A DNA stretch of 64,000 nt from Deltaproteobacteria bacterium (GCA_034670305.1 JAXMNT010000026.1:25402-89401); one strand, 5' to 3'. Positions 2,226-31,015 are shown, counted from the first letter of the stretch. The notes: generated by a model not told the origin, from the letters alone. Translations and numbers: made by a program.

Positions 2226-2522
2226 CGTAGCGGAAGCGGAAGCCGAAGCGGTCGCGGAAGCGGAAGCGGAAGCGGAAGCCGAAGCGGAAGCGGTCGCGGA
2301 AGCGGTCGCGGAAGCGGAAGCGGAAGCGGAATCCGAATCCGAATCCGAAGCCGAATCCGAATCCGAATCCGAAGCCGAATCCGAAGCAGAAGCCGAAGCC
2401 GAAACCGAAGCCGAAGCCGAAGCCGAATCCGAATCCGAATCCGACGCAGAAGCCGAAGCCGAAGCCGAAGCCGACGCCGAAGCCGACGCCGACGCCGACG
2501 CCGAATCCGAGGCCGAAGCCGG
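2226..2522. repeat. Intergenic hexanucleotide microsatellite (GCSGAA)n, about 50 units
   Basis: Direct reading shows gcggaagcggaagccgaagcg... continuing without spacers between the RCC1-protein stop and the next gene start. Confidence 0.9.
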
Positions 2523-2538
2523 CCGATCCGGCTCCGCG

Positions 2539-4302
2539 GTGGCGGGGCGGCCGGGCATGGGTCAGACCGGAGTCATGAAGACTCGACTGGACGTGGTGGG
2601 CGCGGGGGTTCGGTTGGCGGCGTACACCGAGGGGCGGCCGCTCGATTCGGGGGCGCCGGTGGTGCTCTTGCTGCACGGGTACCCGGACGACCACACGGTG
2701 TGGGACGGGGTCGCGGAGGCGCTCGCGGCGGACCACTGCGTGCTGCGATACGACGTGCGCGGGGCGGGCGCGTCGGAGCGACCGGAAGCGGTGGCGGACT
2801 ACGACCTCGCGCTACTCGCGGACGATCTCTTCGCGGTGCTCGAGGCGCTCGTGCCCGACGGCCGACCGGTGCATCTGGTCGGACACGACTGGGGCGGCAT
2901 CCAGCTCTGGGAACCCGTCTGCGATGCGCGCGCGACCGGACGGATCGCGAGCTTCACCTCGGTGAGCGGACCGTGTCTCGACCACGCGGGCCTTGCGATG
3001 CGCGGGCCGGCGTTTCGCTCGCCAGGCAAACTCGTCGCGCAGCTGCGGCGCTCTTGGTACGTCGGGTTCTTCCAGCTTCCGGGCGTCGCGCCCGCGCTCT
3101 GGCGCGGCAAGGCGGGCGCGGGGTTTCCAGCGCGACTTGCCAAGACCGAAGGCATCGACGCGGACAGCCTCTCCGACGGCCTCGTCGAAGATGGCGTGCA
3201 CGGGATCAAACTCTACCGCGCCAACATGCGCGACCGGCTCTCGAAGCCGCGCGACCGCCGCACCGACGTGCCGACGCTGCTCATCGCGCCGGCGGACGAC
3301 GACTACGTCACGCCACTGCTCGCCGACGCAGCCGAAGGGTTCGCGAGCACCCTCTACCGCCGCGACGTCGCGGGCGGGCATTGGATCGTGCGCCGGCATC
3401 CGAAACGCATCGCCCGGTTCGTCGCCGAGATGGTGCGGCACGTCGACGGCGAACCGTCGGCTGCCCTCGAGCGTCGCCGCGTCCGGCCGGGGCATCGCCA
3501 TCCGCGCCGCCTGGCGCTCGTCACCGGGGCTGGATCCGGCATCGGTGAAGCGACCGCGCTCGCGTTCGCGGAAGAAGGCGACGATCTGGTCTTGGTCGAC
3601 CTCGACCTGCCTTCCGCCGAAGCCGTCGCTGTCCGTTGCCAGGCGTTCGGTGTCACGGCCGTCGCTTACCAGGTGGATGTCAGCGACCGGGCCGCGATGG
3701 AAGACCTCACCGAACGGGTCTGCGCCCTCGAGGGCGTGCCGGACGTGGTCGTGAACAACGCAGGCATCGGGCTCGCGGGACCGTTCTTGGCGACCGACGC
3801 GGACGCCTGGGAGCGGGTGCTCGGCGTGAACCTCTTCGGGGTCATTCACGGCGCGCGCCTCTTCGGCCGGGCCATGGTCGAGGCGGGCGGGGGACACCTC
3901 GTGAACATCGCCTCCGCGGCCGCGTTCGCGCCGAGCCGCAACATGTCCGCGTACGCGACCTCCAAAGCCGCGGTGCGCATGCTCGGCGATTGCCTGCGCG
4001 GCGAGTTCGCAGAACACGGCGTCGGGGTCAGCACCATCTGCCCCGGCTTCGTGCACACCCCCATCACCCAGCGCACGCAGTTCGTCGGCCTCGACGACGC
4101 CGCGCAGGCCCAAGAGCGCGACCGCGCGACCGCGATGTACGCGAAACGCAACCTCACCGCCGAAGAAGTCGCGCGCGCGATCGTCGGCGCGGTGGACCAC
4201 GACCGCGCCGTCGTCCCGGTGGGACTCGAGGCGCATGTGCTCGATCGGGTGCAGCGCTGGGCACCGGCGTTGAGCCGAAAGATCGCGTCCCTGAAGTTCT
4301 AG
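2539..4302 (+). CDS. Bifunctional fusion: N-terminal alpha/beta-hydrolase fold and C-terminal short-chain dehydrogenase/reductase (SDR)
   Basis: The N-terminal part has HGYPDD...HLVGHDWGG (nucleophile elbow). After about residue 310 come [10 protein letters not shown] (Rossmann fold), NNAG and YxxxK (YATSK), the SDR catalytic motifs. There is no stop between the two parts. The start may be GTG at 2539 or ATG at 2575. Confidence 0.7.
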
Positions 4303-5150
4303 GGCTTCTTGGCGGGCGCAGCGGGCGCGGCTTCGGGCCAGGGTCGGAACGGGGCGGCGAGGAGCGGAAAGATGCCTTCGGGCAGGTCTTCTTTCACGCC
4401 GAACTCTGTCGGCTGCTCGCCGGCCGGCAGGTGGTACGTGCGGAAGATCAGATCCCAAATCGGAAAGAACCCAGCGAAGTTCACGTGCAGGTCCTTCTGG
4501 TGGTGGAACCGGTGGAACGCCGGGCTCGCAATCACGTAGCGCAGCGGTCCGAACCGCCAGGGCACACTCGCGTGCAACACGATGCCGTGGATCAGAAAGA
4601 GCGGCGCGTAGACCGCGAAGGCCTTGAGCGGCAATCCCATCAGGAACAATGGGATGACCCGCAACACCGTGCCGAGCCCAGTGCCGATCGGATGCCCGCG
4701 CGCCGCAGCGAGCCAATCGACCGTCTTCGAGGAGTGGTGGATCGCGTGCAGTCGCCACAGCCGCTTCGACTTGTGAAAGAGGCGGTGGATCCAGTACCCG
4801 AGGAAGTCGGCGCAGAGCAGACCGATGAGGAGCTGCAGCGCGAACGGGAGCTCCTTCAGCGGACCGGCGCCGTGCTCCATGTGGTCCATGAATCGTTCGC
4901 GTCCGAGCGCCACGGCGGGCAGCAGCAGCGCACCGCCCACGAAGAGCGGCCGCGTGATGCGACTCATGAACCCCGCCACGGGCCACCAGAGGATCTCGCG
5001 GAAGAAGCCCCGAATCGATCGACGCGGCCCCTTCGGCGCTGGCCACTTCCACTGCACCAGCCCCATCAGGATCGCGAAGATCCCGAGACCGGTGAGTATG
5101 CCGCCGAGGTTGGCCATCCAGAGAGTGTACGCCCAAGTCGCGCGTGGCAT
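4299..5150 (-). CDS. Fatty acid hydroxylase / sterol desaturase family integral membrane protein
   Basis: His-box motifs are present (HRLFHxxxxLWRLHAIHHSS and FHRFHHQKDLHVNF) and the protein is hydrophobic. The start is chosen at MPRATWAY (5150); the longer ORF to 5357 overlaps the divergent gene. Confidence 0.65.
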   Translation of the reverse strand: MPRATWAYTLWMANLGGILTGLGIFAILMGLVQWKWPAPKGPRRSIRGFFREILWWPVAGFMSRITRPLFVGGALLLPAVALGRERFMDHMEHGAGPLKELPFALQLLIGLLCADFLGYWIHRLFHKSKRLWRLHAIHHSSKTVDWLAAARGHPIGTGLGTVLRVIPLFLMGLPLKAFAVYAPLFLIHGIVLHASVPWRFGPLRYVIASPAFHRFHHQKDLHVNFAGFFPIWDLIFRTYHLPAGEQPTEFGVKEDLPEGIFPLLAAPFRPWPEAAPAAPAKKP

Positions 5151-5184
5151 TTCCCCCGAGCGGCAAGTCGGGCAGCATGCCCGC

Positions 5185-6105
5185 GTGACCGAGGGATCGA
5201 ACCCGTTGTTTCTTCCGGCCCCAGCCATACCGCGCTGGCTCGAAACCCAGCTGCCGCCAGACACCCGCCGGCGCTGCGTTCGGGTCGGCGAACACGCGCT
5301 GCACGTGATGGAGTTCGGTCCCGCGGACGGACGAGCGGTCGTCTGCGTACACGGCAACCCGAGCTGGGGGTTTCTCTACCGGATGATCGGCGCCGCCCTG
5401 GCCGGCGAACCGTTCCGACTCATCGCACCCGATCTGGTGGGCCTGGGGCTGAGCGACAAACCCCGAGACGGCGCGATGCACACGCTCGACGCGCACGCAG
5501 GTTGGCTTGGTGGCGTCGTCGACGCGCTCGACCTCGAGGACGCGATCTTCGTCGGACAAGACTGGGGCGGACCGATCGGACTGCGCGCGTTCGCCGACCG
5601 GCCGAAGCGACTCTCGGGCATGGTGATCCTGAACACCGTCGTCGGGCCGCCGAAGCCAGGCTTTCGACCCACCGCATTCCACCGGTTCGCCCGGCTGCCG
5701 ATCGTCAGCGACTTCGTCTTCGAGACCCTCGGCTTCCCGCAGAACGCGATGGGATTCGCGCAGGGCGACAGACGCAGCGTGCGTGGCGACGTGCGGCGCG
5801 CGTACATGTACCCGCTCCGGCGGCGCGACGAACGGACCGCGCCCCTGGCCCTGGCGCGCATGGTGCCGGACACCCAATCGCACCCATCGATCGAACCTCT
5901 GCGGCGCTGCCAAGAGTTCTTCGAAGCGTTCGAGGGTCCGGTCGCGATCGTGTGGGGCGATCGCGATCCGGTGCTCGGCTCCGTGCGCAGCTGGATCGAG
6001 AAGCTGCGCCCCGACGCCCACGTCACCCGCACCGAAGCCGGTCACTTTCTCCAAGAAGAAGTACCCGACGAGATCGCCGACGCGGTGCGCCGCGTCGCCT
6101 CATGA
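5185..6105 (+). CDS. Alpha/beta hydrolase, haloalkane-dehalogenase-like (HLD/epoxide hydrolase fold)
   Basis: The sequence ...LHVMEFGPADGRAVVCVHGNPSWGFLYRMI...APDLVGLGLSDKP...GQDWGG matches the HLD N-terminus and nucleophile region. The start is uncertain (GTG at 5185 is used). Confidence 0.65.
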   Translation: MTEGSNPLFLPAPAIPRWLETQLPPDTRRRCVRVGEHALHVMEFGPADGRAVVCVHGNPSWGFLYRMIGAALAGEPFRLIAPDLVGLGLSDKPRDGAMHTLDAHAGWLGGVVDALDLEDAIFVGQDWGGPIGLRAFADRPKRLSGMVILNTVVGPPKPGFRPTAFHRFARLPIVSDFVFETLGFPQNAMGFAQGDRRSVRGDVRRAYMYPLRRRDERTAPLALARMVPDTQSHPSIEPLRRCQEFFEAFEGPVAIVWGDRDPVLGSVRSWIEKLRPDAHVTRTEAGHFLQEEVPDEIADAVRRVAS

Positions 6106-6120
6106 GCGCGCTGCCGAGAT

Positions 6121-6456
6121 TCAGCGGCGGCGGCGACCGAAGAGAGCGACCAGACCGAACATCCACGCGGCGCCCGCGCCCTCGCCCGCTGCTGAACAGC
6201 CGCCGGAGGGGGCAGGGGCTGGCGGTGCTTCGCCTTCGACGCAGTGACCTCCTTGTCCGCGTTCGTACGGCTCCCAATGGGTCCCCTCGCCGCACGCCAC
6301 ACATTCACCGTCGTGGGCGCCCTGCCACTCTTCGCCTTCGGGACATGGGAACGGAGGCACGACGTCGGCCGAAGCCCAGGCCGGCGCGAGACACACGGCG
6401 ACCATCCCTGCGATCAGGACGAGTCGAGCGAAGACGGATGGCGCGGAACGGTTCAT
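6121..6456 (-). CDS. Small Cys-rich secreted protein with a C-terminal MYXO-CTERM sorting signal
   Basis: It has a signal peptide (MNRSAPSVFARLVLIAGMVAVCLAPAWA). The C-terminus GGCSAAGEG...AWMFGLVALFGRRRR is a GC motif plus a TM helix plus an Arg cluster. Confidence 0.6.
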   Translation of the reverse strand: MNRSAPSVFARLVLIAGMVAVCLAPAWASADVVPPFPCPEGEEWQGAHDGECVACGEGTHWEPYERGQGGHCVEGEAPPAPAPSGGCSAAGEGAGAAWMFGLVALFGRRRR

Positions 6457-6493
6457 GGAATCGGAGTGTACCAGCGAGACGTTGGTGCCCGGC

Positions 6494-7330: not shown

Positions 7331-7402
7331 CAACGCCGCCAGCTTCGGCTCCATCACACGAAAGCGGAGCGCCCAACGGACGCTCCGCTCAGCTTCGCCA
7401 AG

Positions 7403-7714
7403 CTATCCGCGACTAAGCTTGAACAACATCGCGCAGACGTGGTCCGCCAGGTCGTAGACCTCGTCGCTCGCCTCCACGTACCCCATCACGCCTGCGACCT
7501 GCAGAGCCGCCTTCACTTCGCGGGCCTCGCCAAGAGCTCGAGAAAAGCCGTCCGGGTTCCGCCCCCCGCGCGCGCTCCGCGACTCGGCGATCAAGAGCGG
7601 GACCGCCTGCGCGGCGCGCCGGAGTTGCGACTTGAGACTCGCCTCGCGAATGCGAGGCAGAACCTCGCGAACCAGCGTAGAAAGCAGAAGCAGCGACTTG
7701 TCGAATACCAGCAT
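7403..7714 (-). CDS. Four-helix-bundle protein (23S rRNA intervening-sequence protein family, TIGR02436-like)
   Basis: It has SQLRRAAQAVPLLIAES...FSRALGEAREVKAALQVAGVMGYV, typical of this family. The N-terminus is possibly longer, with a non-ATG start. Confidence 0.5.
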   Translation of the reverse strand: MLVFDKSLLLLSTLVREVLPRIREASLKSQLRRAAQAVPLLIAESRSARGGRNPDGFSRALGEAREVKAALQVAGVMGYVEASDEVYDLADHVCAMLFKLSRG

Positions 7715-7776
7715 GTTGACCTCCCGGTCGTTGTGCGCCGAGCGTGAACTCGCCCGAGGGCGCGCAGCGCCCCCCA

Positions 7777-7867
7777 GCGGTCTGGGCGGTGCCGGGTCAA
7801 GGACGAGCGAAGCGAAGCCAGCGAAGCTGGGGCCGAAGGCCTCCTTTACGCGGTGCCGCCCAGACCG
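7777..7867. other. Hairpin-capable element with a 14-bp inverted repeat (AGCGGTCTGGGCGG ... CCGCCCAGACCGCT), flanking the GCGAAGCGAAGCCAG motif
   Basis: Read directly from the sequence. It is intergenic and upstream of the 8078 gene. Confidence 0.4.
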
Positions 7868-7939
7868 CTACGGTCGGACAACCCACGGGCCAGCCAAACC
7901 CTCCCGAGAAGGGGGCGGAAGCTACGGGGTGCGTCGCTG

Positions 7940-8030
7940 TCGGCATCGGCATCGGCCGGCATCGGCTTCGGTATCGGCTTCGGCTTCGGCGTCGGCTTCG
8001 CCGTCGGCGTCGGCGTCGGCTCGGGAAGTC
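7940..8030. repeat. Intergenic hexanucleotide microsatellite (GGCDTC)n, about 15 units
   Basis: ggcatcggcatcggccggcatcggcttcggtatcggcttcggcttcggcgtc... Confidence 0.9.
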
Positions 8031-8077
8031 TGCTCGAGCACGCAACCGGCGGCCCACGGTTTCGAGGAGGGACCCAT

Positions 8078-9685: not shown

Positions 9686-10237
9686 ATGCAGAAGTGGATC
9701 GGGATCGGGTTGGCGTTGGCGATGACGATGGGGCTCGGCGCAGGCGCCGATGCCCAACGCGGACAGCGCGGGCAGCGCGGACAACGCGGATACGTGCAAC
9801 AGGGCGCTCACGGCCACGGGCACGCCCATCGCCGGCGCGGACGCGGACACCGACCGCGAGGGCACCACCGAGCGGCGCCCAACTGCCGCGCGACCCTCGT
9901 CCAGGTCGGCCACCACCCCGTCAACGCAGGCTACTGCGAGCGAGCCGAACCCTACTGCGCCGACGCGCTGCTCCGCGCCGGCCACCACCCCGTCAACCTC
10001 GGCTACTGCGCCAACGTCGAACCCGTCTGCGCGTCGTCTCTCCTGCAGGCCGGCCACCACCCCGTGAACCTTGGCTACTGCAGCAGCACCCGCGCCGAAC
10101 CCTACTGCGCCCAGGCCCTCCTCCAAGCCGGCCACCACCCCGTCAACCTCGGCTACTGCGCCAACGTGGAACCCAACTGCGCCGTCTCCGTCCTCCAAAG
10201 CGGCCGCCACCCCGTCAACCTCGGCTACTGCCGCTGA
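9686..10237 (+). CDS. Small secreted His-rich protein with five tandem about 22-aa repeats (C[19 protein letters not shown]/S-x-EP)
   Basis: It has a signal peptide and a (GQR)3 tract, then [20 protein letters not shown], then five near-identical HHPVNLGYC repeats each bracketed by Cys. Confidence 0.55.
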
Positions 10238-10239
10238 CA

Positions 10240-10473
10240 CCACCGGCACCGGCACCGGCACCGGCACCGACGGCCTCGGCCTCGGCATCGGCATCGGCAT
10301 CGGCTTCGGCATCGGCTTCGCCATCGGCATCGGCATCGGCTTCGGCATCGGCTTCGGCATCGGAGTCGGCTTCGGCATCGGCTTCGGCATCGGCATCGGC
10401 ATCGGCATCGGCTTCGGCATCGGCATCGGCTTCGGAGTCGGCCTCGGCTTCGGCTTCGGAGTCGGCCTCGGCC
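10240..10473. repeat. Hexanucleotide microsatellite (GGCDYC)n, about 39 units, immediately 3' of the 9686-10237 gene
   Basis: caccggcaccggc...ggcatcggcttcggcatc... continues unbroken for about 230 bp. Confidence 0.9.
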
Positions 10474-11656: not shown

Positions 11657-13184
11657 GTCCGACGCACACCACGCCGAACCACGCCCACGCTGCGCCCTGC
11701 GTACCTCCGGCGGAACAACCACCGACCACGAGGCCGCCCGTCGGGGTCATCGCGGAAGCGTCGCCACCGGTCGGTCCGGCGTCTGCACTCGGGCCGGCGT
11801 CACTGCCCGGTCCCGCGTCTCGCGCACCGGCGTCCACGCCGCACGCGTCGACACCATCGCAGTTCTGGTCGATGCCGTCGCCGCACATGTCCGCTGCGCC
11901 CGGGTAGATGGTCGCGTCGGTGTCGTCGCAGTCCACGCTCGTGTTGTGTCCATCCCCGTCCGCGTCGGCCGGTCCGCCGGGATCGCATTCGCCCGCCGCA
12001 CAGCCCGCGCACGCCTCGCGTTCCACCGCGCCGCCGCTGCAGCGCACCCGCTCGGCGCCCTCGCAGGTCCAGTCCGCGCCGATGTCCGCCGGGCAGCGCC
12101 CCGCCACCGTCGTGATCCGGATCTGGAGCAAGTCGTCCGCGGGACCGCCGCTGTCGGAGAACCACGCGACGCCTTCTTCGACCAGGTTGAAGAACTGCGG
12201 GTAGTCGCCAGGCGCGTCGGGCGCGCGCACGGTGAAGGAGAACCGGCCGACTTCGCCCGGCGGGGTGTTGGCGTCGGGTCCGGTGACCCGGTGACCACCG
12301 AGCCAGTCGCTGCCCTGCATGGGGCTCGTGGCGTCGCGCGGGTTGCTGGTGCCGAGTCGGGTGTTGCTCGTCCAGGTCTCCGATCCGGTGTTGCGCAGAT
12401 CGATGTGCCCGGTGACCACTTCTCCCGGCGCGAGCTCGAACGGTGCGCTCGCGAGCGGGAAGGTCTGGTCGACATACTGTGCGCGGTACGCCGGCGGGCC
12501 GACGAGCTCCTGGTACGACTCGACGAGCGACATGTACGTGGGCGCGTAGACCGTGCCGACGCCGGAGACGTTCATCCGGATGTTGAAGTGCAGGTGGATG
12601 GTGGTGGAGGTGCCGCCGAAGTCGTTGCTCACGAGACCGAGGCGCTGACCGCGCGTGACCCGCTGTCCGCGCGTCACGGCCAAGCGGCGACTGTTCATGT
12701 GCAGGTAGTCGTAGCGGCGTCCGTCGTCGCCGGTCACGTAGACCGAGTAGCTGCCGATGTTGGTGACCGTGCCGGGCGCGCCGGCGACCACCCAGTGCAC
12801 GCTGTCGGTGCACGTCGCGGGGCGGATGTCTTGGCCCTGATGGCCCTGTCCACTCGGGCACAGCGGCATGTCCCAGCTGCGGCTCTCGCAGTAGTTGTCG
12901 TACCAGGGGTAGCTGTAGTTCCGGGTGTCGCACTGGCCGCCGCTCGGACCCATGTAGCCGCCCGGGCCGTAGATCTGCGAGTTCGCGTAGGCCGGCCCGG
13001 CTTCCATCGGAAAGCGCATGCCGGGTGCGTACACTCGGGCGTCCACTCGGCCGGCACCGGCGCGTGGTGCACCGCCACCCGCACTCATCAGGGTGCCAGC
13101 AGGCTCCCATCGGAACTGGGCCTCGGCAGGCGCCGCCAGAGACGCCGCCGCCACCGCCATCACACCGAGCAGCGCGCGGTTCAC
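11625..13184 (-). CDS. M23 (LytM-type) metallopeptidase with an Ig/NBR1-like middle region, a DCDDTD...CDG metal-binding-type motif and a C-terminal MYXO-CTERM
   Basis: The M23 motifs are HQGQD...YLHMNS...GTSTTIHLHF. The C-terminus is [32 protein letters not shown]. It has a signal peptide. The start is probably GTG at 13184. Confidence 0.7.
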   Translation of the reverse strand: MNRALLGVMAVAAASLAAPAEAQFRWEPAGTLMSAGGGAPRAGAGRVDARVYAPGMRFPMEAGPAYANSQIYGPGGYMGPSGGQCDTRNYSYPWYDNYCESRSWDMPLCPSGQGHQGQDIRPATCTDSVHWVVAGAPGTVTNIGSYSVYVTGDDGRRYDYLHMNSRRLAVTRGQRVTRGQRLGLVSNDFGGTSTTIHLHFNIRMNVSGVGTVYAPTYMSLVESYQELVGPPAYRAQYVDQTFPLASAPFELAPGEVVTGHIDLRNTGSETWTSNTRLGTSNPRDATSPMQGSDWLGGHRVTGPDANTPPGEVGRFSFTVRAPDAPGDYPQFFNLVEEGVAWFSDSGGPADDLLQIRITTVAGRCPADIGADWTCEGAERVRCSGGAVEREACAGCAAGECDPGGPADADGDGHNTSVDCDDTDATIYPGAADMCGDGIDQNCDGVDACGVDAGARDAGPGSDAGPSADAGPTGGDASAMTPTGGLVVGGCSAGGTQGAAWAWFGVVCVGLSRRSRRRSR

Positions 13185-14863: not shown

Positions 14864-15256
14864 GTGCCCGTGCCCGTGCCCGTGCCCTTGCCCTTGCCCT
14901 CGAGTGAAGCCTTCGGCGTCGGCATCGGCTTCGGCATCGGCTTCGGCGTCGCCTTCGGCGTCGGCTTCGGCGTCGCCTTCGGCATCGGCATCGGCTTCGG
15001 CATCGGCGTCGGCTTCGGCGTCGGCATCGGCTTCGGCTTCGGCGTCGGCTTCGGCGTCGGCATCGGCTTCGGCGTCGGCATCGGCGTCGGCTTCGGCGTC
15101 GGCTTCGGCGTCGGCTTCGGCTTCGGCGTCGGCTTCGGCGTCGGCATCGGCGTCGGCTTCCGCTCCGTCCGCTTCCGCCTCCGCCACCGCGTCCGCCACC
15201 GCCACCGCGTCCACTTCCGCGTCGCTCCCGCTCCCCGCGTCCGCTTCCGCTTCCGA
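14864..15256. repeat. Long composite microsatellite: (CCCKTG)n, then (GGCDTC)n, then (CGCNWC)n, about 390 bp, between two minus-strand genes
   Basis: Read directly from the sequence. Confidence 0.9.
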
Positions 15257-16405
15257 CTACCAGGTGATGGTCACGCTGCCCGGTTCGCCTACGTTGCCCG
15301 CGGTGCCGGTGGTCTCTCCGAAGCCGCCGGCCGTGCTGCCCAGCCCGCCGGCCCCGTCGGACGCGGTGCCGAGGAATCCGCCGACCCCGCCCACACCCGG
15401 CACACCACCCGCGCCGCCGGCCGGGGCGAGCGCTCGAATGATGCCTGTCCCCGCCGTGTTCTCCACGGGACCGCCGGCCGCACCGCCGTCTCCGCCGTCG
15501 CCGCCGCGCACCGCGGCAAGTGCCACCACATCGCACGGACGGATGACCAAGGTCGCACCGCCACCGCCACCGCTGCCGCCCGATCCACCCGTCGCCGCTT
15601 GTCGGTCGGGCGTGTTCGTGCCGCCGCCGGTGGTGCCGCCGCTGCCGGGTCCCGCGCCATGTCCGCCCACACCTGCGGGTCCGCCAGGTCCACCGAAGTA
15701 CCCCGCGCCGCTCATGTTCGCGTTGCGGCCCGGCTGTCCGCCGGCGCCACCGTAGCCAGTGCGGATCGTGAGGCGCTCGCCGGGCACCACCGAGACCGTC
15801 TCCGTCGCCGACGGCCGCGCTTCGCCATCGGCGCCGGGGTTGCCGACCACCCGCTGGGCGCCGCCGCGACCGATGCTGTAGCCGCCCCCGCCACCGCCGC
15901 CGCCACCGCCGCCGAACACGGTGATGGTGATCGAACAGACTCCGTCGGGCACGACGAACTCGAGGTCTTCGTTGGCCGGCGCGATCTCGATCGAGCCAGT
16001 AGGCGGGTCGTCGCACACCGGTGCGCCGGCGTCTGGGCTGCAGGTGCTGGCGTCCATCGGCGCGTCGATGCCGCCGTCCAGATCCGCGTCCATCTCCATC
16101 CCGGCGTCCAGGTCGTCCGCGTCCATGAACCCGCCGTCCATGTCGACCGCGCCGTCCATCTCGACCGACGCGTCGTCGAATGCGCCGTCGGCGACATCGC
16201 TGTCGCGGTCCATGGCGCCGTCCGCCCGCGGTGGCGCGTCGGTGCCCGCGTCCCGGGGGGTCGCGGCGTCGAGGCCGCCATCGACCGTTCCGCCGCCGGC
16301 GTCCACGCCCGCATCCACGCCCCCGCCGGTGTCGTCGTCTCCGCACGCCAACGCGCCGACCAGACACAACACCCACGTCAGCTGAACCAGCTTCGTTCCT
16401 CGCAT
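15257..16405 (-). CDS. Glycine-rich secreted lipoprotein with an acidic D/A/G linker and a Gly-rich C-terminal domain
   Basis: It has a lipobox (LVGALAC), a poly-Gly tract (11 G) and GGxGGxG-type repeats, but no collagen GXY periodicity. Confidence 0.5.
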
Positions 16406-16517
16406 CCTCAACCCCCTACAAGCCAACCCGTCCGGCCTCGTTCCTCTGCGCTGGAGCCCACCGCGGGTGCCGCGTGAGTGTATCAATGAGGCCGGAGGAT
16501 CGCGACCGACCCCCGCC

Positions 16518-18873
16518 CTACTCCTCCGCGGCTGCGCGTTCCTCGCGCGCGCGCCGCTGGGCCTCGATCGCCCAGTACACCGCTTCGGGTGTCGAGGGAC
16601 ACGCGACGTCGACGCGTTCCGCGCCGCTTCCGAACGCCGCCACCGCGGCGCGGATCGCTTCGCGTGCGCTGAGCGCGAGCATCAACGGAGGTTCGCCGAC
16701 GGCTTTGCTGCCGCCGATGACCGTCGGTTCGGTCGCCCGCGGCATGAGCTCCACGTGAAACGCCTCCGGGCATTCGCCGAGGGTCGGCAACTTGTACGTG
16801 CTCGCCCCGCGGGTGCCGAGCCGGCCGGTCTTCGCATCCCACACGAGCTCTTCGCGGGTGAGCCAACCGAGGCCTTGCATGAAGCCGCCTTCGACCTGGC
16901 CGCGGTCGACGAGCGGCGAGAGCGAGTCGCCGACGTCGTGCAGAATGTCGACGCGTCGAACGTCGTACTGGCCGGTGAATCCATCGACTTCGACCTCGGT
17001 CACCGCCGCGCCGTACGCGAAGTAGTGGAAGGGTTTGCCGACGCCTTTGGCTTCGTCGTAGTGGATGTTCGGGGTGCGGTAGTAGCCGGTCGCGAAGAGC
17101 CGCACCCGCTGCAGGTACGCGGTCTTGGCGATCTCGCCGAAGGACTTCTTCTCGGACGCGCGCCCGACCGGATGCACGAAGCCGGCGCTGAAGACGATGT
17201 CATGTGCGGCGCATCCGAAGAGCGCACCCGCCACGCCCGCCAGTCGTTCACGGATCGCGTCGCACGCGTCCCGCACCGCCGCGCCGTTGAGATCGGTCCC
17301 GCTCGACGCCGCCGTGGCACTGGTGTTCGGCACCTTGTCGGTGCGGGTCGGCATCATGCGGATCGCCGGAAGGTCCACGCCGAGCGCGTCCGCCGCGATC
17401 TGCAGCATCTTCGTGTGCAGCCCCTGGCCCATCTCGGTGCCGCCGTGGTTAAGCTGCACCGAGCCATCCGCGTACAGCAGGACGAGCGCGCCCGCCTGGT
17501 TGAAGAACGCGGTGGTGAAAGAGATCCCGAACTTCACCGGCGTGATCGCGAGGCCGCGCTTCTTGTGCGGGTGGATCGCATTGAACGCTTCGATCGCTGC
17601 CAGCCGCGCCTCGAACTCGGACGACTGCGTGAGGCTCTGCCAGATGTCGCGCGCCCGCCCGGCGTCTTTGATCAACATGCCGTAGTGGGCGTGGTCCCCT
17701 TCTTCGATCAGGTTCGCCGCGCGCACGACGTGCGGCGCCAAACCGGTGGCGCGCGCGATGCGGTCCATGATCTCTTCGATCACGACCATGCCCTGCGGGC
17801 CGCCGAATCCGCGGAACGCGGTCTGCGAGGTCTTGTGGGTTTTGCAGACCCGGCCGCGGACCCGCACGCTCGGCAGCTTGTAGGCGTTGTCGACGTGGAA
17901 CATCGCGCGGAAGAGCACCGGCTTGCTCAGGTCGAGGCTCCAGCCGCCGTCGCTGAACAGCTCGATGTCCGCTGCGAGCAAACGGCCGTCCTCCGCGAAC
18001 GCCACGTCGTAGCGGCCGAGGAAGGGATGGCGTTTGCCGGTCATCACCATGTCGCGCTGACGGTCGAGCCGGAGCCGCACGGGCCGCCCGGTCTTCACCG
18101 CGCCGAGCGCGGCCACGCACGCCCAGAGGTTGGCCTGCACTTCTTTGCCGCCGAACGCGCCACCCATCCGGAGCGACTGGCAGGTGACCGCGTGTTTCGG
18201 GACCTCGAGCACGCGCGCCACGATCGCCTGGGTCTCGGTCGGGTGCTGGGTGCTCGCGTGCACCATCACCTGGCCGGACTCGTCCAGGTAGACGAGCGCC
18301 GCCTGCGACTCCAGGTAGAAGTGTTCCTGACCGCCGACGAACACCTCGCCGCTGAGCCGCTCGCCCGCCGAGAGCGCCGCCTGCAAGTTCTCGGCGCCGT
18401 CCGCGAGCCGCTCGATCGTCAGCGCTTCGGTGTGAAAGCTCTCGTGTGCGATCGCGGCTTCGATGCTCAAGATCGGATCGAGCGCTTCGACCTCGACGGC
18501 GACCTTCGCCGCGGCTTGGCGTGCTTCGGGTTCGGATTCGGCGAGCACCCACGCGACGGCCTGTCCATGGAACTGGACGACCGCCGGGAACATGTCTTCG
18601 TCCAGCGTCGCGGCGCCGATGTTGGCATCCGGCGCGTCGTCGCGCGTGAGCACGGTGGCGACGCCGGGCATCGCGAGCGCGGCGGACGCGTCGACCGACA
18701 CGACCCGCGCGTGGGCGACGTCGACGCACACCGGCCAGGCGTGCAGCACGTTCGCCATGCGGGGTGCGATGTCGTCGGTGTAGAGCGCGGCGCCGGTGAC
18801 GTGCTCGGCGGCGGACTCGTGCGGGATCGCGAGACCCACCTGTCGTTTCTTCGTGATCGCGCCGGAAGTCATT
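16518..18873 (-). CDS. xdhB: Xanthine dehydrogenase molybdopterin-binding subunit XdhB
   Basis: It has the Ald_Xan_dh_C and C2 domain signatures (GGAFGGKE, QGLGW, HGGTEMGQG). The ATG at 18873 overlaps the xdhA stop. Confidence 0.85.
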
Positions 18874-20266
18874 CTGCCGCCTCCGGATGCGCCTCGTGCG
18901 CGAGTTTGAGGATGAGCTGAGAGACCATCGCGGCGCGGTAGCGCGCGCTGCCTCGGTGGTCGTCGATGGGCGTGAAGGCCGTCTCGAGCAAGGGCACCAC
19001 GTCGGCCAGCGCGCTCGGATCGAGTGGTTTTCCAACCAGCGCGGCCTGCGCCGCGTGCGCGCACATCGGAGTCGCGGCGACCCCGCCGTAGGCGAGCCGC
19101 GCTTTGGTGATCAGACCGCCATCGGTCCAGAGCGCGAAGCCCGCGGCGACGGTCGAGATGTCGTCGAGGATGCGCTTGGACACCTTGAAGAAGCGCTGCA
19201 CGTCCGGGAAGGGTTTGGGCACGATCACCGAGCGCACGATCTCGCCCGGCTCGAGCTGGGTCTTGCGGTAGGCGGAGAAGAACCCGTCGAGCGGCACCGT
19301 CCGCTCGCCGCCTTTGCGCGCCAGCACGAGTGACGCATCGAGCGCGAGGAGCGCCGGTGGTCCATCGCCGATCGGCGACGCGTTCACGAGGTTGCCGCCG
19401 AAGGTCGCGCGGTTGCGAATCAACCTGCTGCTGAAGAGCGGGAAGAGTTCGTCGAGCATCGGAAGGCGGCCGTGCAGCGCTTCTTCCAGGAACGCGAGCG
19501 GCTCCCCGGCACCGAGCACGAGCGCGTCGGCGGTCTCTTCGAAGCCGCGCAGCTCGCCGATCGCGTCCAGCGCGACCAGATGATCGAACCGCCGGTCCAT
19601 CTGGTTGACCTCGACGACCACGTCGGTGCCGCCGCCCACGAGTTTCGCGTCGGGCGATGCCTCGAGCAGATCGAAGAGCTCCGCAAGGGTGGTCGGCCGA
19701 TCGAAGCGCACCCCCGAATGTTCGGTGCGCAGGCTCGGGACCTCGAGCGCGGGCGACGCGAGCCGCTTCTGGTGCGGGTCCGCCTCCGACGGAGTTCGAA
19801 GCGAGACGAGCGCCTCCCGAATCGGGCGGTACCCAGTGCAGCGACAGAGGTTGCCGCCGATGGACTCGAGATCCGGTTCGCCCTCGACGCGGCCGTCCCG
19901 GTAGAACTCCGCGAACATGCTGACGACGAAACCCGGCGTGCAGTAGCCGCACTGCGAACCGCCGCGCTCGACCATCGCCGCCTGCACCGGATGGAGGGCC
20001 GACGGGTCCTTCGCGATGCCTTCGACCGTCACGACCTCTTCGCCATGCACCGATGCGGTGAGCATCAGACACGCGTTCATCGGGACGTAGCGGGTCTTGC
20101 CGTCCGGTCCGGTGCGCACGAGCGCCACCGCGCACGCGCCACACTCGCCTTCGGCGCAGCCTTCTTTGGTGCCGGTCCAGCCGCGGTCGCGGAGGAAGTG
20201 AAGAAGAGGAAGGTGGGGGTCGACGTCTGTCTCGATCGCCTCACCGTTGAGTCGGAACCGGATCAT
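18869..20266 (-). CDS. xdhA: Xanthine dehydrogenase small subunit XdhA ([2Fe-2S] and FAD-binding)
   Basis: It has CAEGECGACAV and CGYCTPGF 2Fe-2S motifs, followed by an FAD-binding CO-dehydrogenase-flavoprotein-like domain. Confidence 0.85.
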   Translation of the reverse strand: MIRFRLNGEAIETDVDPHLPLLHFLRDRGWTGTKEGCAEGECGACAVALVRTGPDGKTRYVPMNACLMLTASVHGEEVVTVEGIAKDPSALHPVQAAMVERGGSQCGYCTPGFVVSMFAEFYRDGRVEGEPDLESIGGNLCRCTGYRPIREALVSLRTPSEADPHQKRLASPALEVPSLRTEHSGVRFDRPTTLAELFDLLEASPDAKLVGGGTDVVVEVNQMDRRFDHLVALDAIGELRGFEETADALVLGAGEPLAFLEEALHGRLPMLDELFPLFSSRLIRNRATFGGNLVNASPIGDGPPALLALDASLVLARKGGERTVPLDGFFSAYRKTQLEPGEIVRSVIVPKPFPDVQRFFKVSKRILDDISTVAAGFALWTDGGLITKARLAYGGVAATPMCAHAAQAALVGKPLDPSALADVVPLLETAFTPIDDHRGSARYRAAMVSQLILKLAHEAHPEAAE

Positions 20267-25646: not shown

Positions 25647-25647
25647 C

Positions 25648-27333
25648 GTGCGTAGGTCGACCGACGGGTGGGGGTGGACCGGCGCGCGCAGCGCGTGGGC
25701 ACACGGTGCGCTTCTCTGCACGCTCGCCGCGTGCACTACGCCGGAGCCGTTGCCGCCGGTCGCGACCCACGTCGACGACTGGCGGGACGAGGTGCTCTAC
25801 CAGGTGGTCGTCGACCGGTTCGAGAACGGCGACCCTGGGAACGACGACCTCGATGGCGTCGGGGTCGGCGGGGCGCTCGAACGGCACCAAGGCGGCGACT
25901 GGGCAGGGCTCGAAAGCCGCCTCGACTACATCCAGGGACTCGGCGCGACCGCGCTGTGGATCTCGCCGATCGTCGCGAACGTCGACCGCACCGAATCCGA
26001 AGACGGCTACCACGGCTACTGGGCGAGCGACTTCACCGAGCTGAACCCACGCTTCGGCGGCCCCGACGATCTGCGCCGGCTGGTCCGCGCCGCCCACGAC
26101 CGGTCGATGCTGGTCGTCGTCGACGTGGTGACGAACCACGCCGGCCGCGTGTTCGGCTACGACTTGGATCGCGACGGAGCGGTGAGCGAGGGCGAAGTCG
26201 AGCCGCCGTTCCTCGACGCGGGCTACGACGTGCCGCTCGTCTGGTCGCACCGGCCGAGGCTCTGGCGCGACGACGCACGGTGGACGCTCGAAGCGTCTCA
26301 CTTTCACCGGAGGGGCGACGGCAACCTCGGCGACCCGCACGAACGCGTCTTCGGCGACTTCCCCACCGGCCTGCGGGACCTCGACACCGAACAAGCCGAG
26401 CTGCGCGACGCACTCGTCGAGACCTACGCGCGCTGGGCGACCGAGTTCGACCTCGACGGGTTCCGCATCGACGCGGTGCCGCACGTGGAGACGGACTTCT
26501 GGGCGACCTTCGGACGCGAGATCCGGGCGCGGCTGTCGCGCGAAGGCAAAGACCGGTTCTTGCTGCTCGGTGAGGTCTTCAGCGGCGACCCCTCGGTGCT
26601 CGCGCGCTACTCGGATGACGAAGGCGCGCTCGACGGCGCGTTCGACTTCGCGCTCAAGTTCGGCGTGGTCGACGCGGTGCTGCTCGACGGCGGCGCGCCC
26701 GCCACCGCCCGCGGCATCCTGGAAGGATCGGGCGCGTACCGCCCCTTCGGCCAGCCGGGCGGCGTCGGCCTCTCGCCGTGGCAAGCGCGGGTGGCGATCG
26801 CGGACAACCACGACACCTGGCGCATCCGCGGCGAACTCGATCGCTTCGAGTCGGTCGCACTCGCGCTGCTCTTGGTGACCACCGTCGATGCGATCCCCTG
26901 CATCTACTACGGCACCGAACAGGCGTTCCGAGGCATGGGCGGCGCGGGCAGCCGCGAGCGCATGTGGGAGAGCGGCTTCCGGACCGACGGCGAGACCTAC
27001 CAGTGGCTGCATCGTTTGCTCGAGCTGCGGGCGTCGCGCGAAGTCCTGCGGCGCGGCTCTTTGACAGTGCGCTACGCGAGCGAGAACGACGGCTTCAGCG
27101 ACGCGCCCGACGCGGGCCTGCTCGCCTACGAACGGGCGCTCGGCGACGAACGGATGTTGATCGTGCTCAACGCCCACGCGCTCCAGTCGTCGGCGGCGGT
27201 GGTGCCGTCTGGATTCGCGGCCGGCACGCGGCTCGTCGACGTGCTCGGCGGCGGCGAGGCGGAGGTCGGCGCGGGCGGCGCCATCTCGGTGGCACTCGGC
27301 CCGCGCGGCGCGGCGATGTACGAGCCGCGCTGA
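25648..27333 (+). CDS. GH13 alpha-amylase family lipoprotein (second paralogous-type enzyme)
   Basis: It has a lipobox (LCTLAAC) and regions DVVTNHAG, GFRIDAVPHV and LLGEVF. Confidence 0.8.
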   Translation: MRRSTDGWGWTGARSAWAHGALLCTLAACTTPEPLPPVATHVDDWRDEVLYQVVVDRFENGDPGNDDLDGVGVGGALERHQGGDWAGLESRLDYIQGLGATALWISPIVANVDRTESEDGYHGYWASDFTELNPRFGGPDDLRRLVRAAHDRSMLVVVDVVTNHAGRVFGYDLDRDGAVSEGEVEPPFLDAGYDVPLVWSHRPRLWRDDARWTLEASHFHRRGDGNLGDPHERVFGDFPTGLRDLDTEQAELRDALVETYARWATEFDLDGFRIDAVPHVETDFWATFGREIRARLSREGKDRFLLLGEVFSGDPSVLARYSDDEGALDGAFDFALKFGVVDAVLLDGGAPATARGILEGSGAYRPFGQPGGVGLSPWQARVAIADNHDTWRIRGELDRFESVALALLLVTTVDAIPCIYYGTEQAFRGMGGAGSRERMWESGFRTDGETYQWLHRLLELRASREVLRRGSLTVRYASENDGFSDAPDAGLLAYERALGDERMLIVLNAHALQSSAAVVPSGFAAGTRLVDVLGGGEAEVGAGGAISVALGPRGAAMYEPR

Positions 27334-27336
27334 ACG

Positions 27337-28092
27337 CTAAAAGTGCTCCCAGGGCGCGGTGAAGTTCGTCCTCGTCTCCGCGGCCGGGGCTTCGTCGTCG
27401 GCGAAGAACTCATCGAGGTAAGGCGCGGAGAAGTACGCGGCGCCGGCGAAGGCCAGCACCAGCGGGACGCGGGCGAGCTGCGCGGAGGCAGAGGCGATCT
27501 CGCCGGCGTTGAAGCGGTCGACGGCGCGCAGGCCACCGAAGAAGTCGTAGATCATCAGCGCCGGCACGATGGCCGCGAGCTCCGGGTGGCCGAGGAGCGC
27601 TGCGCCGATGGCGTTGGCTTCGAGCGCGAGGATGAGCCATGCGGTGTGCATCTGGCGCGCGTAGAAGTGGCCGGAGCCGAAGGTGAGCACCAGCGACGCG
27701 AACGCGGCGATGCGTTTGAGCTTCTTGTCGGTGTAGCCCTCTTCGTCGTCGCCCGGACCGCCGCGGTAGGGACCGTCGACCGCGGGCGGCTTGGGATCGG
27801 CGATCGGCTCGAGGATCTCGTCGGCGTCTTCGAGCGACGTGAGGATCTCGCGCGCCGCCTCCAGATCGCTCTGCCGGACCTTGATCGAGATCTTCACGTA
27901 GCCGCCGATCATGCCGAGCATGTGGCGGTGTTCGAGGCCCGGGGTGGCGACGACGATGCCCGCGTCTTGCAGCAGTTCGCGGTGGACCTCCGCTTCCATC
28001 GGGTCGTGCAGGGTCTCCAGCGTCACGAAGGAATCGTCGGTCACACCTTGAAGGTAGTGCCGCCCGGCAATCCGCGCTATGGCGGCGGCCAT
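27337..28092 (-). CDS. DUF2007-like (putative signal-transducing) domain protein with a C-terminal membrane region
   Basis: The N-terminal small domain FVTLETLHDPMEAEVHRELLQDAGIVV matches DUF2007-like proteins, and hydrophobic helices follow. The start is chosen at MAAAIARIAG. Confidence 0.45.
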   Translation of the reverse strand: MAAAIARIAGRHYLQGVTDDSFVTLETLHDPMEAEVHRELLQDAGIVVATPGLEHRHMLGMIGGYVKISIKVRQSDLEAAREILTSLEDADEILEPIADPKPPAVDGPYRGGPGDDEEGYTDKKLKRIAAFASLVLTFGSGHFYARQMHTAWLILALEANAIGAALLGHPELAAIVPALMIYDFFGGLRAVDRFNAGEIASASAQLARVPLVLAFAGAAYFSAPYLDEFFADDEAPAAETRTNFTAPWEHF

Positions 28093-29158
28093 GAGCAAGG
28101 CGGACGCTGCGGCGCAGGACGACGAAGTGGTGGAGAAGAAGGCCGTTGTGGCCGAAGTCGACGACACGCCGATGGCGCTGCTCGGCGCGCGCGCCGGCGT
28201 CGGAGGACTGCTCATGGGCCTGGCCAACCTGGTGCCTGGCATCAGCGGCGGCACCATGTTGCTCGCGTCCGGGATCTACCCACGCTTCATCAAAGCGGTG
28301 GCCGAGGTCTCGACCCTGAAGTTCCGCAAGCGGTCCATCTTCGTGCTCGGGGTGATCGTGGTGGCCGCGCTGTCGGCGATCGTGCTGCTCGCCGGCCCGG
28401 TGAAGTCGCTCGTCGTCTCTCACCGCTGGGTCATGTACAGCCTGTTCATCGGGCTGACCCTCGGTGGTGTCCCGGTGGTCTGGAAACTCGCCAAACCGGC
28501 GAGCTCCGCGACCTGGATCGGCGCCGTGCTCGGGTTCGTCCCGATGGCGGTGCTGGCGTACTTCCAGATGACCGGGTCCGATGGGGGCGCGGACAACGAA
28601 GGGTTCGTGATGATGTTCCTCGCCGGCGTGGCGGGGGCGAGCGCCATGATCCTGCCGGGGGTGAGCGGCGGCTACCTGCTCTTGGTCATGGGCGTCTACG
28701 TCACGATCTTGGGCGCGGTCGATGCGTGCAAGGTCGCGGTCAAAGCCGGCGCGTGGGGCGATCTCGGCGACCCGTTTCTGAGCGTGGTGTTGCCGGTCGG
28801 CCTCGGCGTCGTGGTCGGCGTCTTGATCGTGAGCAACGGGCTCCAGTGGCTCTTGAAGAAGTACGAGAAGGTCACCCTCGGTGCGCTGCTCGGTTTGCTC
28901 GTCGGTGCGGTCGTTGGCTTGTGGCCGTTCCAGCGCGGCGTGGCGCCGGCCATCGGCGACCTGTTCAAGGGCCAGGTCGTCACCGCGGAATCGCTGACGG
29001 AGATCGCTCCGGAGAAATACCCGACCGAGTTCTTCACGCCGGACGGCGGACAGATCGCGACCGTGCTCGGTCTCGTGGTGGTGGGCTTTTTGGCCACGGC
29101 ACTCGTGGCCAAACTCGGCGCCGGCAAAGACGACGCGAAGAAGGCCGCGAAGGCGTGA
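28079..29158 (+). CDS. DUF368 family membrane protein (undecaprenyl-phosphate translocase PopT-like)
   Basis: It has the duplicated GISGGTMLL and GVSGGYLLL motifs characteristic of DUF368, and about 8 TM segments. Confidence 0.65.
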   Translation: MAAAMSKADAAAQDDEVVEKKAVVAEVDDTPMALLGARAGVGGLLMGLANLVPGISGGTMLLASGIYPRFIKAVAEVSTLKFRKRSIFVLGVIVVAALSAIVLLAGPVKSLVVSHRWVMYSLFIGLTLGGVPVVWKLAKPASSATWIGAVLGFVPMAVLAYFQMTGSDGGADNEGFVMMFLAGVAGASAMILPGVSGGYLLLVMGVYVTILGAVDACKVAVKAGAWGDLGDPFLSVVLPVGLGVVVGVLIVSNGLQWLLKKYEKVTLGALLGLLVGAVVGLWPFQRGVAPAIGDLFKGQVVTAESLTEIAPEKYPTEFFTPDGGQIATVLGLVVVGFLATALVAKLGAGKDDAKKAAKA

Positions 29159-29161
29159 CCG

Positions 29162-30205
29162 TCACCGCGTGGTGAACGCGCGGACCTGAGCGCGCTGGGT
29201 TTCGGTCCACGCGCTGGCGCCGTCTTTCGCACGGGCCGACCAGAGCCACGCGCCGACGTAGCCGCGGTCTCGAATGTGTTCGAGGCGGCCGCGCAGGTAC
29301 TGGTTCGGGTCGTGGTCGGTGGGGAGTGGCCAGCGCATGTGCTGGAGGTGAAACCGCGGACCCTGCGCGGACGCGAACTCACCGACGACCGCGTTGGGGG
29401 TCGCGGCGCGCGGGAGGGTTCGGAGCAGCGGGGTCGGATAGTGGTGGATTTGCCAGAGGCCGCGCTCGACCACCCGGCGCGCTCCTGCGGTCAGCCAGTC
29501 CGGACAGCGCGCGAAGCCGACCGTGGGCGTGAAGCCGGCGTCGGCCACCCGCTGGCTGAGACCGACCAGCAACGCTTCGAGCCCCGGTCGCTCCACCCGA
29601 TCGCGCGTGCGGACCCACCGGCCGCCGACCCTTCGCACGTGCAGCGGGCCGCCCTTCACGATCCAGTCCGGTTCGTTGCAGATCTCGAAGGCGCGCACGT
29701 ACTTCGGTCGGATGACCTCGAGCATCGGCGCGACGAGCGTGTCGAAGGTCTCGTCCGGATCCGATTGCAGCACGTGCCGCAGGCCGCCGGAGATCACGCC
29801 GCCGCTTCGGACGACCATCGGGAAGAACGCCTCGAACGAGACCAGCGAAGGCACGAGCTGCATGCCGGCGTTCGCGCAGGCGGTCTCGAGCTTCGCGAGA
29901 TCCGCGAGGAACGCATCGGTGGGCGGGACTGGACGGCCACGAAAGTGGCCCGCGTGCACCTTCCAGGTGGGCGCGCGCCCCACCGGGTAGTTCACCCCGC
30001 CGGCCAGAAGCCAGAAGCGCGCGACCTGGATCCCGTCGGCGCGCCACGAAGAGAGATCGCGTTCCAGTTCCCCGAAGTCCGTCCGGCGCGCGCCGGCCCA
30101 CGGGGGCGGCTTCTCACCGAAGTCGTGGCCACACGAGACCCAGGGAACCGAGAGACCGAGCTGCACCGCGGGAGCATAGTGCGATGTGTCAGTGCTGGGC
30201 TCCAC
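29162..30205 (-). CDS. TIM-barrel glycoside hydrolase, GH5-clan-like
   Basis: It has FEICNEPDW (the catalytic acid NEP motif) and GEFAS (a putative nucleophile Glu). Confidence 0.5.
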   Translation of the reverse strand: MEPSTDTSHYAPAVQLGLSVPWVSCGHDFGEKPPPWAGARRTDFGELERDLSSWRADGIQVARFWLLAGGVNYPVGRAPTWKVHAGHFRGRPVPPTDAFLADLAKLETACANAGMQLVPSLVSFEAFFPMVVRSGGVISGGLRHVLQSDPDETFDTLVAPMLEVIRPKYVRAFEICNEPDWIVKGGPLHVRRVGGRWVRTRDRVERPGLEALLVGLSQRVADAGFTPTVGFARCPDWLTAGARRVVERGLWQIHHYPTPLLRTLPRAATPNAVVGEFASAQGPRFHLQHMRWPLPTDHDPNQYLRGRLEHIRDRGYVGAWLWSARAKDGASAWTETQRAQVRAFTTR

Positions 30206-30651
30206 GGAACGGCGAGGGAGACCTGGTGACCGGGGGACCGACCCATTGGTGGATGGTGGTGGACAGGAACGGCGCGAGGCCGACGCCGACGAACCCGACG
30301 AGAACGACGCCGAGGCCAGGAGTCAGCGCCAGGCCCAAGGCTTCGAGGGAGAGGAGTCCGGCGCTGATCAGGAGCGACAAGCCGCCGAACCGCGACAACC
30401 GCCGATCCTGGCTTCCATCGACCGGTCCTTGGAGTTCGTCCTCCTCCACCGTGCGTGTGTAGAGGATTGCGGCGACGAGCCAGACGATGGTCACGACTTC
30501 GGTCATGGGCTGGCTATGAGCACGAAGGGTGCCGGCGGTTGGCCTTGGTTTTTCCCGTCATGTGCATGGATCTTGCGGGAGAAAGCGGAGCGGTTTTCTT
30601 CGAGTTGTGGAAAAGTGCCCGATAGCAGGCAGGCTCTAGCCAACTCCCTGG

Positions 30652-31015
30652 CCCGCCGAAGCCGAAGCACGTCGCCGAGGCCGAAGCCGAGGCCGAAGCC
30701 GAAGCCGAATCCGAGGCCGAAGCCGAGGCCGAAGCCGAAGCCGAAGCCGAAGCCGAAGCCGAATCCGAAGCCGAGGCCGACGCCGAATCCGAGGCCGAAT
30801 CCGACGCCGGACAGCCGAAGCCGAGGCCGAAGCCGAGGCCGACGCCGAAGCCGACCCCGAATCCGAAGCCGAGGCCGAAGCCGAGGCCGACGCCGAAGCT
30901 GACCCCGAATCCGAGGCCGAAGCCGAATCCGAGGCCGAAGCCGAAGCCGAATCCGAAGCCGACGCCGAAGCCGAATCCGAGGCCGACGCCGTTTCCGCTT
31001 CTGCTTCTGCTTCTG
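30652..31015. repeat. Intergenic hexanucleotide microsatellite (GCCGAR)n, about 60 units
   Basis: gccgaagccgaggccgaagccgaatcc... continues unbroken for about 360 bp. Confidence 0.9.

Follow-up and report, generated by a model that had tools for sequence, protein, structure and literature searches.

The first half of a 64,000-nt stretch of Deltaproteobacteria bacterium DNA (GCA_034670305.1, JAXMNT010000026.1:25402-89401; hereafter the window) contains five arrays of a degenerate hexanucleotide, T1 to T5, none of which lies within a gene. These are probably non-coding simple sequence repeats (SSRs), or variable number tandem repeats, that are specific to a lineage, were made by slippage and are mostly neutral. 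An earlier note on this DNA had described a dispersed family of long hexanucleotide microsatellites in intergenic positions, and for the five tracts this description holds. It had, however, counted six or more sites, and those at 33541–33600 and 62822–62990 prove to be other repeats that are part of coding sequence.

All five arrays were detected at period 6 by Tandem Repeats Finder (TRF) and, when read on the strand listed for each, all are iterations of K-C-S-G-A-N. They measure 86–393 bp, with 8 to ~56 units each, the shortest (T2) falling below the range of 100–390 bp first proposed. Nor are they perfect or uninterrupted, as had been claimed: unit-to-unit match is 72–89 % (TRF), making these degenerate tandem arrays, T5 is broken twice, near 30667 by 7 extra nucleotides and near 30811 by 5, and T4 harbours one 3-nt insertion.

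T1 (2224–2521, + strand) consists of ~49 GCSGAN units in blocks of GCGGAA, TCCGAA and GCCGAM (49.7 copies and 85 % matches by TRF), whilst T2 (7939–8024, − strand) is an 86 bp GCCGAM array with indels (TRF 7940–8024, 14.7 copies, 81 % matches, 6 % indels). T3 (10238–10472, − strand) comprises 34 GCCGAN units, with GCCGAT dominant (TRF 10244–10472, 38.7 copies, 83 % matches), and its segment at 10238–10267 is a second hexamer, (GGTGCC)4. T4 (14864–15256, − strand), resolved from TRF output, the sequence itself and a table of units, is a compound array. Its stop-proximal part (15256–15167) is made of degenerate GCGGAN units (TRF 15168–15255, TCCGCC-type, 73 %), its middle (15163–14913) of 41 GCCGAN units arranged as 12/18-mers (TRF 14913–15160, a 12-mer in 20.7 copies, 89 % matches), and its end segment (14864–14899) of (GGGCAM)6, which TRF reports as six copies of GTGCCC. 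T5 (30655–31015, + strand) contains ~52 GCCGAN units in two frame-shifted segments (TRF 30655–30991, 55.7 copies, 79 % matches), followed after 30991 by (GCTTCT)3 (TTCTGC in 3.8 copies by TRF). Thus, each of the three compound arrays, T3, T4 and T5, terminates in a different second hexamer. Local blocks of a single unit variant occur within the arrays, joined in T4 by the higher-order 12/18-mers. Unit variants follow a distinct order in every tract, and the junctions with the flanks are unique.

Chance composition does not account for this family, as a pattern of eight KCSGAV units gives 34 matches in the window and none in 100 shuffles that preserved dinucleotides. At ~1.4 kb of hexamer array within 31 kb, the density is an extreme case for a bacterium, bacterial genomes usually being poor in long microsatellites.

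With regard to gene context, all five tracts are located outside open reading frames (ORFs) that show homology or a coding-type signature of G+C at third codon positions (GC3). Three of the five (T1, T3 and T4) begin 0–2 nt past a stop codon, so that the placement directly after stops proposed earlier is correct for these; T5 lies further off, behind a hairpin, and T2 occupies a divergent upstream region. Two (T1 and T4) fill the whole gap between co-directional genes, leaving only 35–42 nt ahead of the start codon that follows. With respect to the neighbouring transcription units, two arrays are sense, two are antisense and one is undefined. Four of the five lie outside promoter regions.

In detail, T1 begins 2 nt past the TGA (2220–2222, + strand) of a gene with RCC1 and MopE motifs (93–2222), with three-frame translation showing that the GA of this TGA falls in phase with that of the hexamer. 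It ends 35 nt ahead of the ATG (2557) of a hydrolase-SDR (short-chain dehydrogenase/reductase) gene, a start fixed by an identical database protein (P0001). T2 is found 52 nt upstream of ATG 8076, which opens a gene for a signal-peptide protein, in a region that this gene shares with the divergent ORF at 7403–7714 (− strand); a promoter scan located no promoter upstream of ATG 8076 at T2. T3 directly follows the TGA (10235–10237) of a small, Cys/His-rich + strand gene (9686–10237), to which it is antisense because GCCGAN reads on the opposite strand. T4 directly follows the TAG (15257–15259) of a Gly-rich gene; at its other end, 42 nt separate it from GTG 14821, the likely start of an ArsM-like methyltransferase. 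T5 is 90 nt past the stop of a Band7 gene (31106) and antisense to both flanking minus-strand genes. Between that stop and T5 lies a GC-rich hairpin (GAGGGCGG...CCGCCCTC; 31025–31058, − strand) which, judged from its sequence, is probably the terminator of a yqiJ-Band7 operon; a simple terminator scan did not call it, and a hairpin is present at the equivalent place in a relative (L114, below). Inspection of the flanks revealed no motif common to the five tracts.

Beyond the window, a scan for ten consecutive KCSGAN units, with one genome per species, returned at least 113 loci (given L numbers here). Myxococcota account for ~40 among the 113 matches listed, with Polyangiaceae, Sandaracinaceae, Kofleriaceae, Nannocystaceae and Haliangiales represented, whilst the matches listed from other phyla are mostly coding repeats, read in the Ala-Asp/Glu frame of long ORFs (NCN-GAN; e.g. 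L001, L014, L043, L048 and L053). The gene caller used here, which is based on GC3, was noisy on the 113 loci and missed the Gly-rich gene beside T4, so classification refers to cases inspected by eye. Amongst these, two loci of a Polyangiaceae metagenome-assembled genome (MAG), L055 and L091, carry near-pure (GCGGAA)n that starts at the upstream TGA, with the stop in hexamer register, and ends ~27–35 nt before the next candidate start. One array of this kind is present in an isolate, Polyangium jinanense (L026). In a record titled as a Polyangiales chromosome (L098), an array is found a few bases past a TAA, and another lies between convergent genes. A Myxococcales MAG (L100) contains a compound array that shares (GGGCAM)n with T4; this KTGCCC/GGGCAM array, of ~18 units at 7442–7548, belongs to a MAG unrelated to the window.

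The surroundings of the seeded matches also differ between taxa, as additional period-6 arrays of other motifs, for which no seed had been used, number 12 in 327 kb of Myxococcota loci and 2 in ~512 kb from other taxa, the latter count excluding one odd mycoplasma contig. The locus labelled Metamycoplasmataceae (L023, 618–7559) displays kilobase-scale, near-perfect arrays (92 copies of AAGGAG, 1.26 kb of a GCGGAG type, 66 copies of TAGTAG and 224 of AACACA); this contig is very odd for a bacterium and may represent contamination or a eukaryotic fragment.

A second set of 42 metagenome loci was fetched via the Band7 protein and is thus unseeded by the repeat. Within ~100 kb from these Band7-anchored relatives (at least 57 % identity), no long intergenic hexamer array was found, and the array trait is therefore patchy. 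In L114, whose Band7 protein is 82 % identical, only yqiJ-Band7 is syntenic (77 % DNA identity by blastn), and at the place of T5 a different degenerate array, (TCGTGC/TCGTAA)n at 12233–12378, lies past the hairpin and ahead of an unrelated gene. In L118 and L119, whose ArsM is 74 % identical, the gap upstream of that gene spans 69 nt and is free of arrays. With T5 replaced in the one case and T4 absent in the other, it follows that conservation of the arrays does not reach across such distances.

The blocks within the tracts, a structure typical of slippage, suggest how such arrays may arise, namely by replication slippage together with unequal exchange of 6-, 12- and 18-nt units, which would both build and reshape them. 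Loops of 6–18 nt are poorly corrected by mismatch repair, and therefore arrays of this unit could grow wherever selection allows. They would be tolerated only in non-coding DNA, with expansion expected to stop at a constrained element, either a stop codon or, at the opposite end, the region where ribosomes bind for the following gene. Deletions at short homologies between an array and stop-adjacent sequence would account for the in-register abutment on stops. Turnover would be fast, and arrays would not be conserved between relatives. Most likely there is no dedicated function, and whatever effect the arrays had on adjacent genes would be a by-product: T1 and T4 might lengthen the intercistronic spacer of their gene pairs, for example, and T2 might change the spacing ahead of gene 8076. 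The mixed orientation, the absence at two orthologous sites, the patchiness and the frame-neutral hexamer all weigh against a conserved function; phase variation, non-B DNA and recombination hot spots had been put forward in the earlier note as candidate roles. Directly observed are the anatomy of the arrays, their non-coding status, mixed orientation and lack of conservation, and their patchy, lineage-enriched distribution; slippage, escape from mismatch repair and neutrality are inferred. Should slippage and neutrality indeed explain the arrays, they are likely to be hypervariable markers for strain typing, and likely break points in assemblies, whilst their patchy spread would point to a lineage-specific change in replication or repair. 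They would also be traps for gene callers, because they are nearly stop-free in all six frames; the earlier statement that the tracts are open in every frame comes close, there being a TAG at 2228–2230 in one frame and a TGA near 30900 in one.

Several points limit the reading as slippage and neutral decay or do not sit easily with it. The relatives could be compared at only two sites, and at ~77 % DNA (L114) or 74 % ArsM protein (L118) identity, whilst the closest contigs, L116 (95 % nucleotide identity) and L117 (90 %), end before any tract, so that no second assembly spans a tract in which length polymorphism, the hallmark of slippage, would show. In addition, long arrays in the window have periods of 6, 12 or 18 only, and never 5, 7 or 8, which is surprising if the DNA is not read in triplets. 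Finally, the unit itself is unevenly constrained. Across 197 phased units, G occupies position 1 in 85 %, C position 2 in 96 %, C position 3 in 84 %, G position 4 in 100 % (197/197) and A position 5 in 95 %, whilst position 6 is A in 52 %, C in 22 %, G in 12 % and T in 13 %, with two to three alternatives to A per tract. Because units are not independent, each departure from GCCGAA was counted once per combination of tract, position and base; the distinct departures at positions 1–6 are then 7, 4, 4, 0, 4 and 12 (p ~0.008 against uniformity). An invariant G at position 4 and a free position 6 recur in every tract, and pure neutral decay predicts neither this nor the restriction to periods of 6, 12 or 18. 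The pattern is no clean codon wobble either, since by this count of events positions 2 and 5 vary as much as position 3.

Such constraint could be expected if the arrays were functional cis-elements, acting as DNA or RNA: tandem sites for a protein that reads the GCCGA core, spacers or insulators, or length-variable contingency modulators. We regard this as unlikely, although the same positional constraint recurs independently in all five tracts, T1 and T4 fill intercistronic gaps and halt 35–42 nt before the next start, T2, in a divergent region, precedes a start codon by 52 nt, and both GCSGAN and GGGCAM motifs recur in unrelated Myxococcales assemblies. Were the constraint on the unit and the strict 3n periodicity to reflect selection, the arrays would constitute a new type of bacterial cis-element. 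Against this stand the mixed orientation relative to transcription, the absence or motif replacement of arrays at both orthologous sites seen, and the lack of any in ~100 kb of unseeded relatives. There are likewise no common flanks, the scans for promoters and terminators gave no signal, Rfam returned no family match in window positions 1–34000, and steps of a hexamer are unable to shift a reading frame. Predicted RNA folds were no better than those of shuffled sequences for T1 (z = +0.48), T4 in the sense direction (z = +2.96) or T5 in the antisense direction (z = −1.83). Within 2224–2400, the (GCGGAA)n of the first half of T1 is partly complementary to the (TCCGAA)n of its middle (CGGA/UCCG), and the fold predicted there is a single long imperfect hairpin (z = +0.48 against shuffled sequences). 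Separately, the (GGGCAA)2(GGGCAC)4 of T4 (14864–14899, − strand) repeats G3N3, a canonical G-quadruplex motif; it is on the sense strand and stops 42 nt short of the ArsM start.

A more specific proposal, and a distinctly unlikely one, is that the arrays are selected as tandem recognition sites, with a GCCGA core every 6 bases and a free sixth, for a putative DNA/RNA-binding factor of the Polyangia lineage, or else are decoded as Ala-Glu/Asp tails by stop bypass. If this were true, long hexamer arrays between genes would be serving a bacterial lineage as functional elements.

Translation in general deserves separate consideration, as the GCN-GAN frame of the arrays reads (Ala/Ser)-(Glu/Asp), and in it most differences between units are silent or conservative, falling mainly at third positions or exchanging Ala for Ser. 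The tracts might accordingly be translated, now or recently, as acidic low-complexity tails, either through read-through of the stop (T4) or a +1 shift at TGA (T1, L055 and L091), or as relic C-terminal tails that a stop mutation severed and that then went on expanding. In T4, the Ala-Glu/Asp frame does continue in frame from the upstream TAG for ~135 codons, and includes a 120-codon ORF beginning with GTG, so that this tract is ambiguous as to translation. In T1, L055 and L091, GAN is in phase with the last two bases of TGA, which puts the Ala-Glu frame at +1. Moreover, a GldG-like gene of the window does encode a comparable tail, (ETAA)n, in line with the earlier suggestion that such repeats can also be part of coding sequence. 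We nonetheless hold translated tails to be improbable. Between 2212 and 2539, the Ala-Glu frame of T1 lacks ATG, GTG and TTG alike, and the sequence ahead of its TGA is not slippery. T5 shifts frame twice and keeps its unit pattern, as does a comparable array (L087), whilst T3 and T5 are antisense to their neighbours. As independent events, changes at position 3 are no more frequent than at positions 2 or 5, and codon use differs from that of the window genes (GAA for 81 % of Glu against 40 %; GCC for 84 % of Ala against 34 %). The upstream proteins also have C-termini that we take to be natural-looking (e.g. '...YAAYDALAKL*' in L091). Taken together, the mixed orientation, the double frame change in T5 and the lack of a start in T1 render both ordinary translation and a strand-specific RNA role unlikely.

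That the arrays are mis-assembled or collapsed repeat reads is hardly credible, even though the exact number of units in a degenerate repeat of 300–400 bp is hard to assemble, because the tracts have individual, ordered unit patterns with unique flank junctions and comparable arrays are present in independent assemblies, including an isolate (L026) and a chromosome-titled record (L098).

A number of further candidates were considered and rejected. CsrA (GGA) sites, Shine–Dalgarno-like arrays and Rho utilization (rut) sites each suit only some unit variants, and the unit is not homopurine, as H-DNA (triplex) would need. A programmed +1 frameshift of the prfB type finds no slippery codons before TGA (CUA, CAG and CUC). 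Adenine mutagenesis of the kind driven by diversity-generating retroelements does not fit a unit in which one of two adenines varies (position 6 free, position 5 95 % A), and there is no template copy. A mobile element is dismissed on the lack of common flanks, and selection for open frames would forbid just three specific substitutions.

Amongst described repeat classes, the arrays appear to fit that of long SSRs. This class, LSSR5-11, reportedly set out by Mrazek, Guo and Shah (PNAS 2007), is said to comprise long SSRs with units of 5–11 nt, mostly in free-living non-pathogens with large genomes. The shared features are short units in tens of tandem copies, a non-pathogenic host with a probably large genome, a location that is often intergenic and clustered, and the lack of an established function. 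The degenerate, position-specific GCCGAN unit, the abutment on stops and the exclusively 3n periods set the window arrays apart. Given such a class, the impression that repeats of this sort have almost no bacterial precedent was overstated. A literature search found no description of a GCCGAN unit, of such density, of an intergenic and stop-abutting position, or of this host lineage. According to a recent survey, hexanucleotide repeats are enriched in most prokaryotic phyla, and it is units of three and six nucleotides that show more enrichment in genic and coding DNA (PMC12699852).

Other known systems resemble the arrays less closely. The SSRs of contingency loci in Neisseria, Haemophilus and Campylobacter are similarly slippage-prone and close to gene ends or promoters, and T2 does occupy an upstream region; those SSRs, however, have very pure units of 1–5(7) nt, lie inside ORFs or between promoter elements, and switch expression through unit number, whereas the 6-nt unit here keeps the frame and most tracts are 3′ of genes. 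Coding low-complexity repeats, such as the Ser-Asp repeats of staphylococcal Sdr/Clf proteins and proteobacterial Ala-Asp/Glu repeats, have the same NCN-GAN pattern in DNA. They come with a start, a single frame and a gene-like context, whereas the window tracts are past stops, start-less, frame-changing or antisense to their neighbours. Clustered regularly interspaced short palindromic repeats (CRISPR), repetitive extragenic palindromic (REP) and BOX elements, and miniature inverted-repeat transposable elements (MITEs) are also repetitive and intergenic; the arrays share none of their spacers, palindromic units, conserved flanks or target-site duplications. CRISPR arrays consist of 24–48-nt repeats split by unique spacers of similar length, and the contiguous, spacer-free hexamers bear out the initial view that this is no such system; the same is true of REP and BOX elements, with neither a palindromic unit nor shared flanks in evidence.

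The host, to judge from gene content and nearest homologues, is probably an uncultured, Polyangia-like myxobacterium of marine origin. The window has 69 % G+C and belongs to a contig of 104,528 bp (NCBI). By Pfam, its genes include RCC1 and MopE motifs, a peptidase of family M23 that also bears a MopE motif, a Band7 protein resembling flotillin and a methyltransferase of the ArsM type. Among named homologues, the nearest to Band7 reach 82 % and those to ArsM 74 %; they come from MAGs labelled Polyangiaceae, Sandaracinaceae, Myxococcota or Deltaproteobacteria. Of the two closest contigs, L116 is from a marine metagenome (95 % DNA identity) and L117 from a JGI (Joint Genome Institute) metagenome (90 %). 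For the gene labelled B, no relative above 52 % identity was found.

Some neighbours of the arrays have unusual features of their own. The gene preceding T3 (9686–10237, + strand) contains coding 72/150-nt tandem repeats at 9894–10231 that give rise to five copies of a Cys/His motif ending in EP.CA; its protein is small and secreted, has no Pfam match and displays (QRG)n and (HG)n runs near the N-terminus. The Gly-rich protein beside T4 (15257–16486, − strand) possesses a putative signal sequence and a run of about eleven glycines, again with no Pfam match, and its TAG is followed by T4 in frame. Further along, the region 16518–18868 holds no single ORF with clean coding GC3, whilst + strand 'shadow' frames there have a GC3 of ~0.9. 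It lies upstream of 18869–20266 (− strand), the FAD (flavin adenine dinucleotide)/2Fe-2S subunit of a xanthine-dehydrogenase-type enzyme, and may be a frame-disrupted large-subunit gene, or may contain indel errors in the sequence.

The two coding repeats elsewhere in the window are of a different nature from T1–T5. At 62851–62968, a 12-mer in 9.8 copies (95 % match) encodes the (ETAA)n of the GldG-like ORF (62810–63961, − strand), where it forms a cytoplasmic C-terminal tail past the last hydrophobic segment of the protein. At 33542–33592, the (DV)n of YqiJ is encoded by (TCGACG)n, a repeat outside the GCCGAN family. A (GACGTS)n array encoding (DV/DA)n near the YqiJ N-terminus is also present in L114 (9294–9357), L121 (5366–5413) and L122 (7205–7284), and thus the coding hexamer array of YqiJ, unlike the intergenic arrays, is conserved in several relatives.

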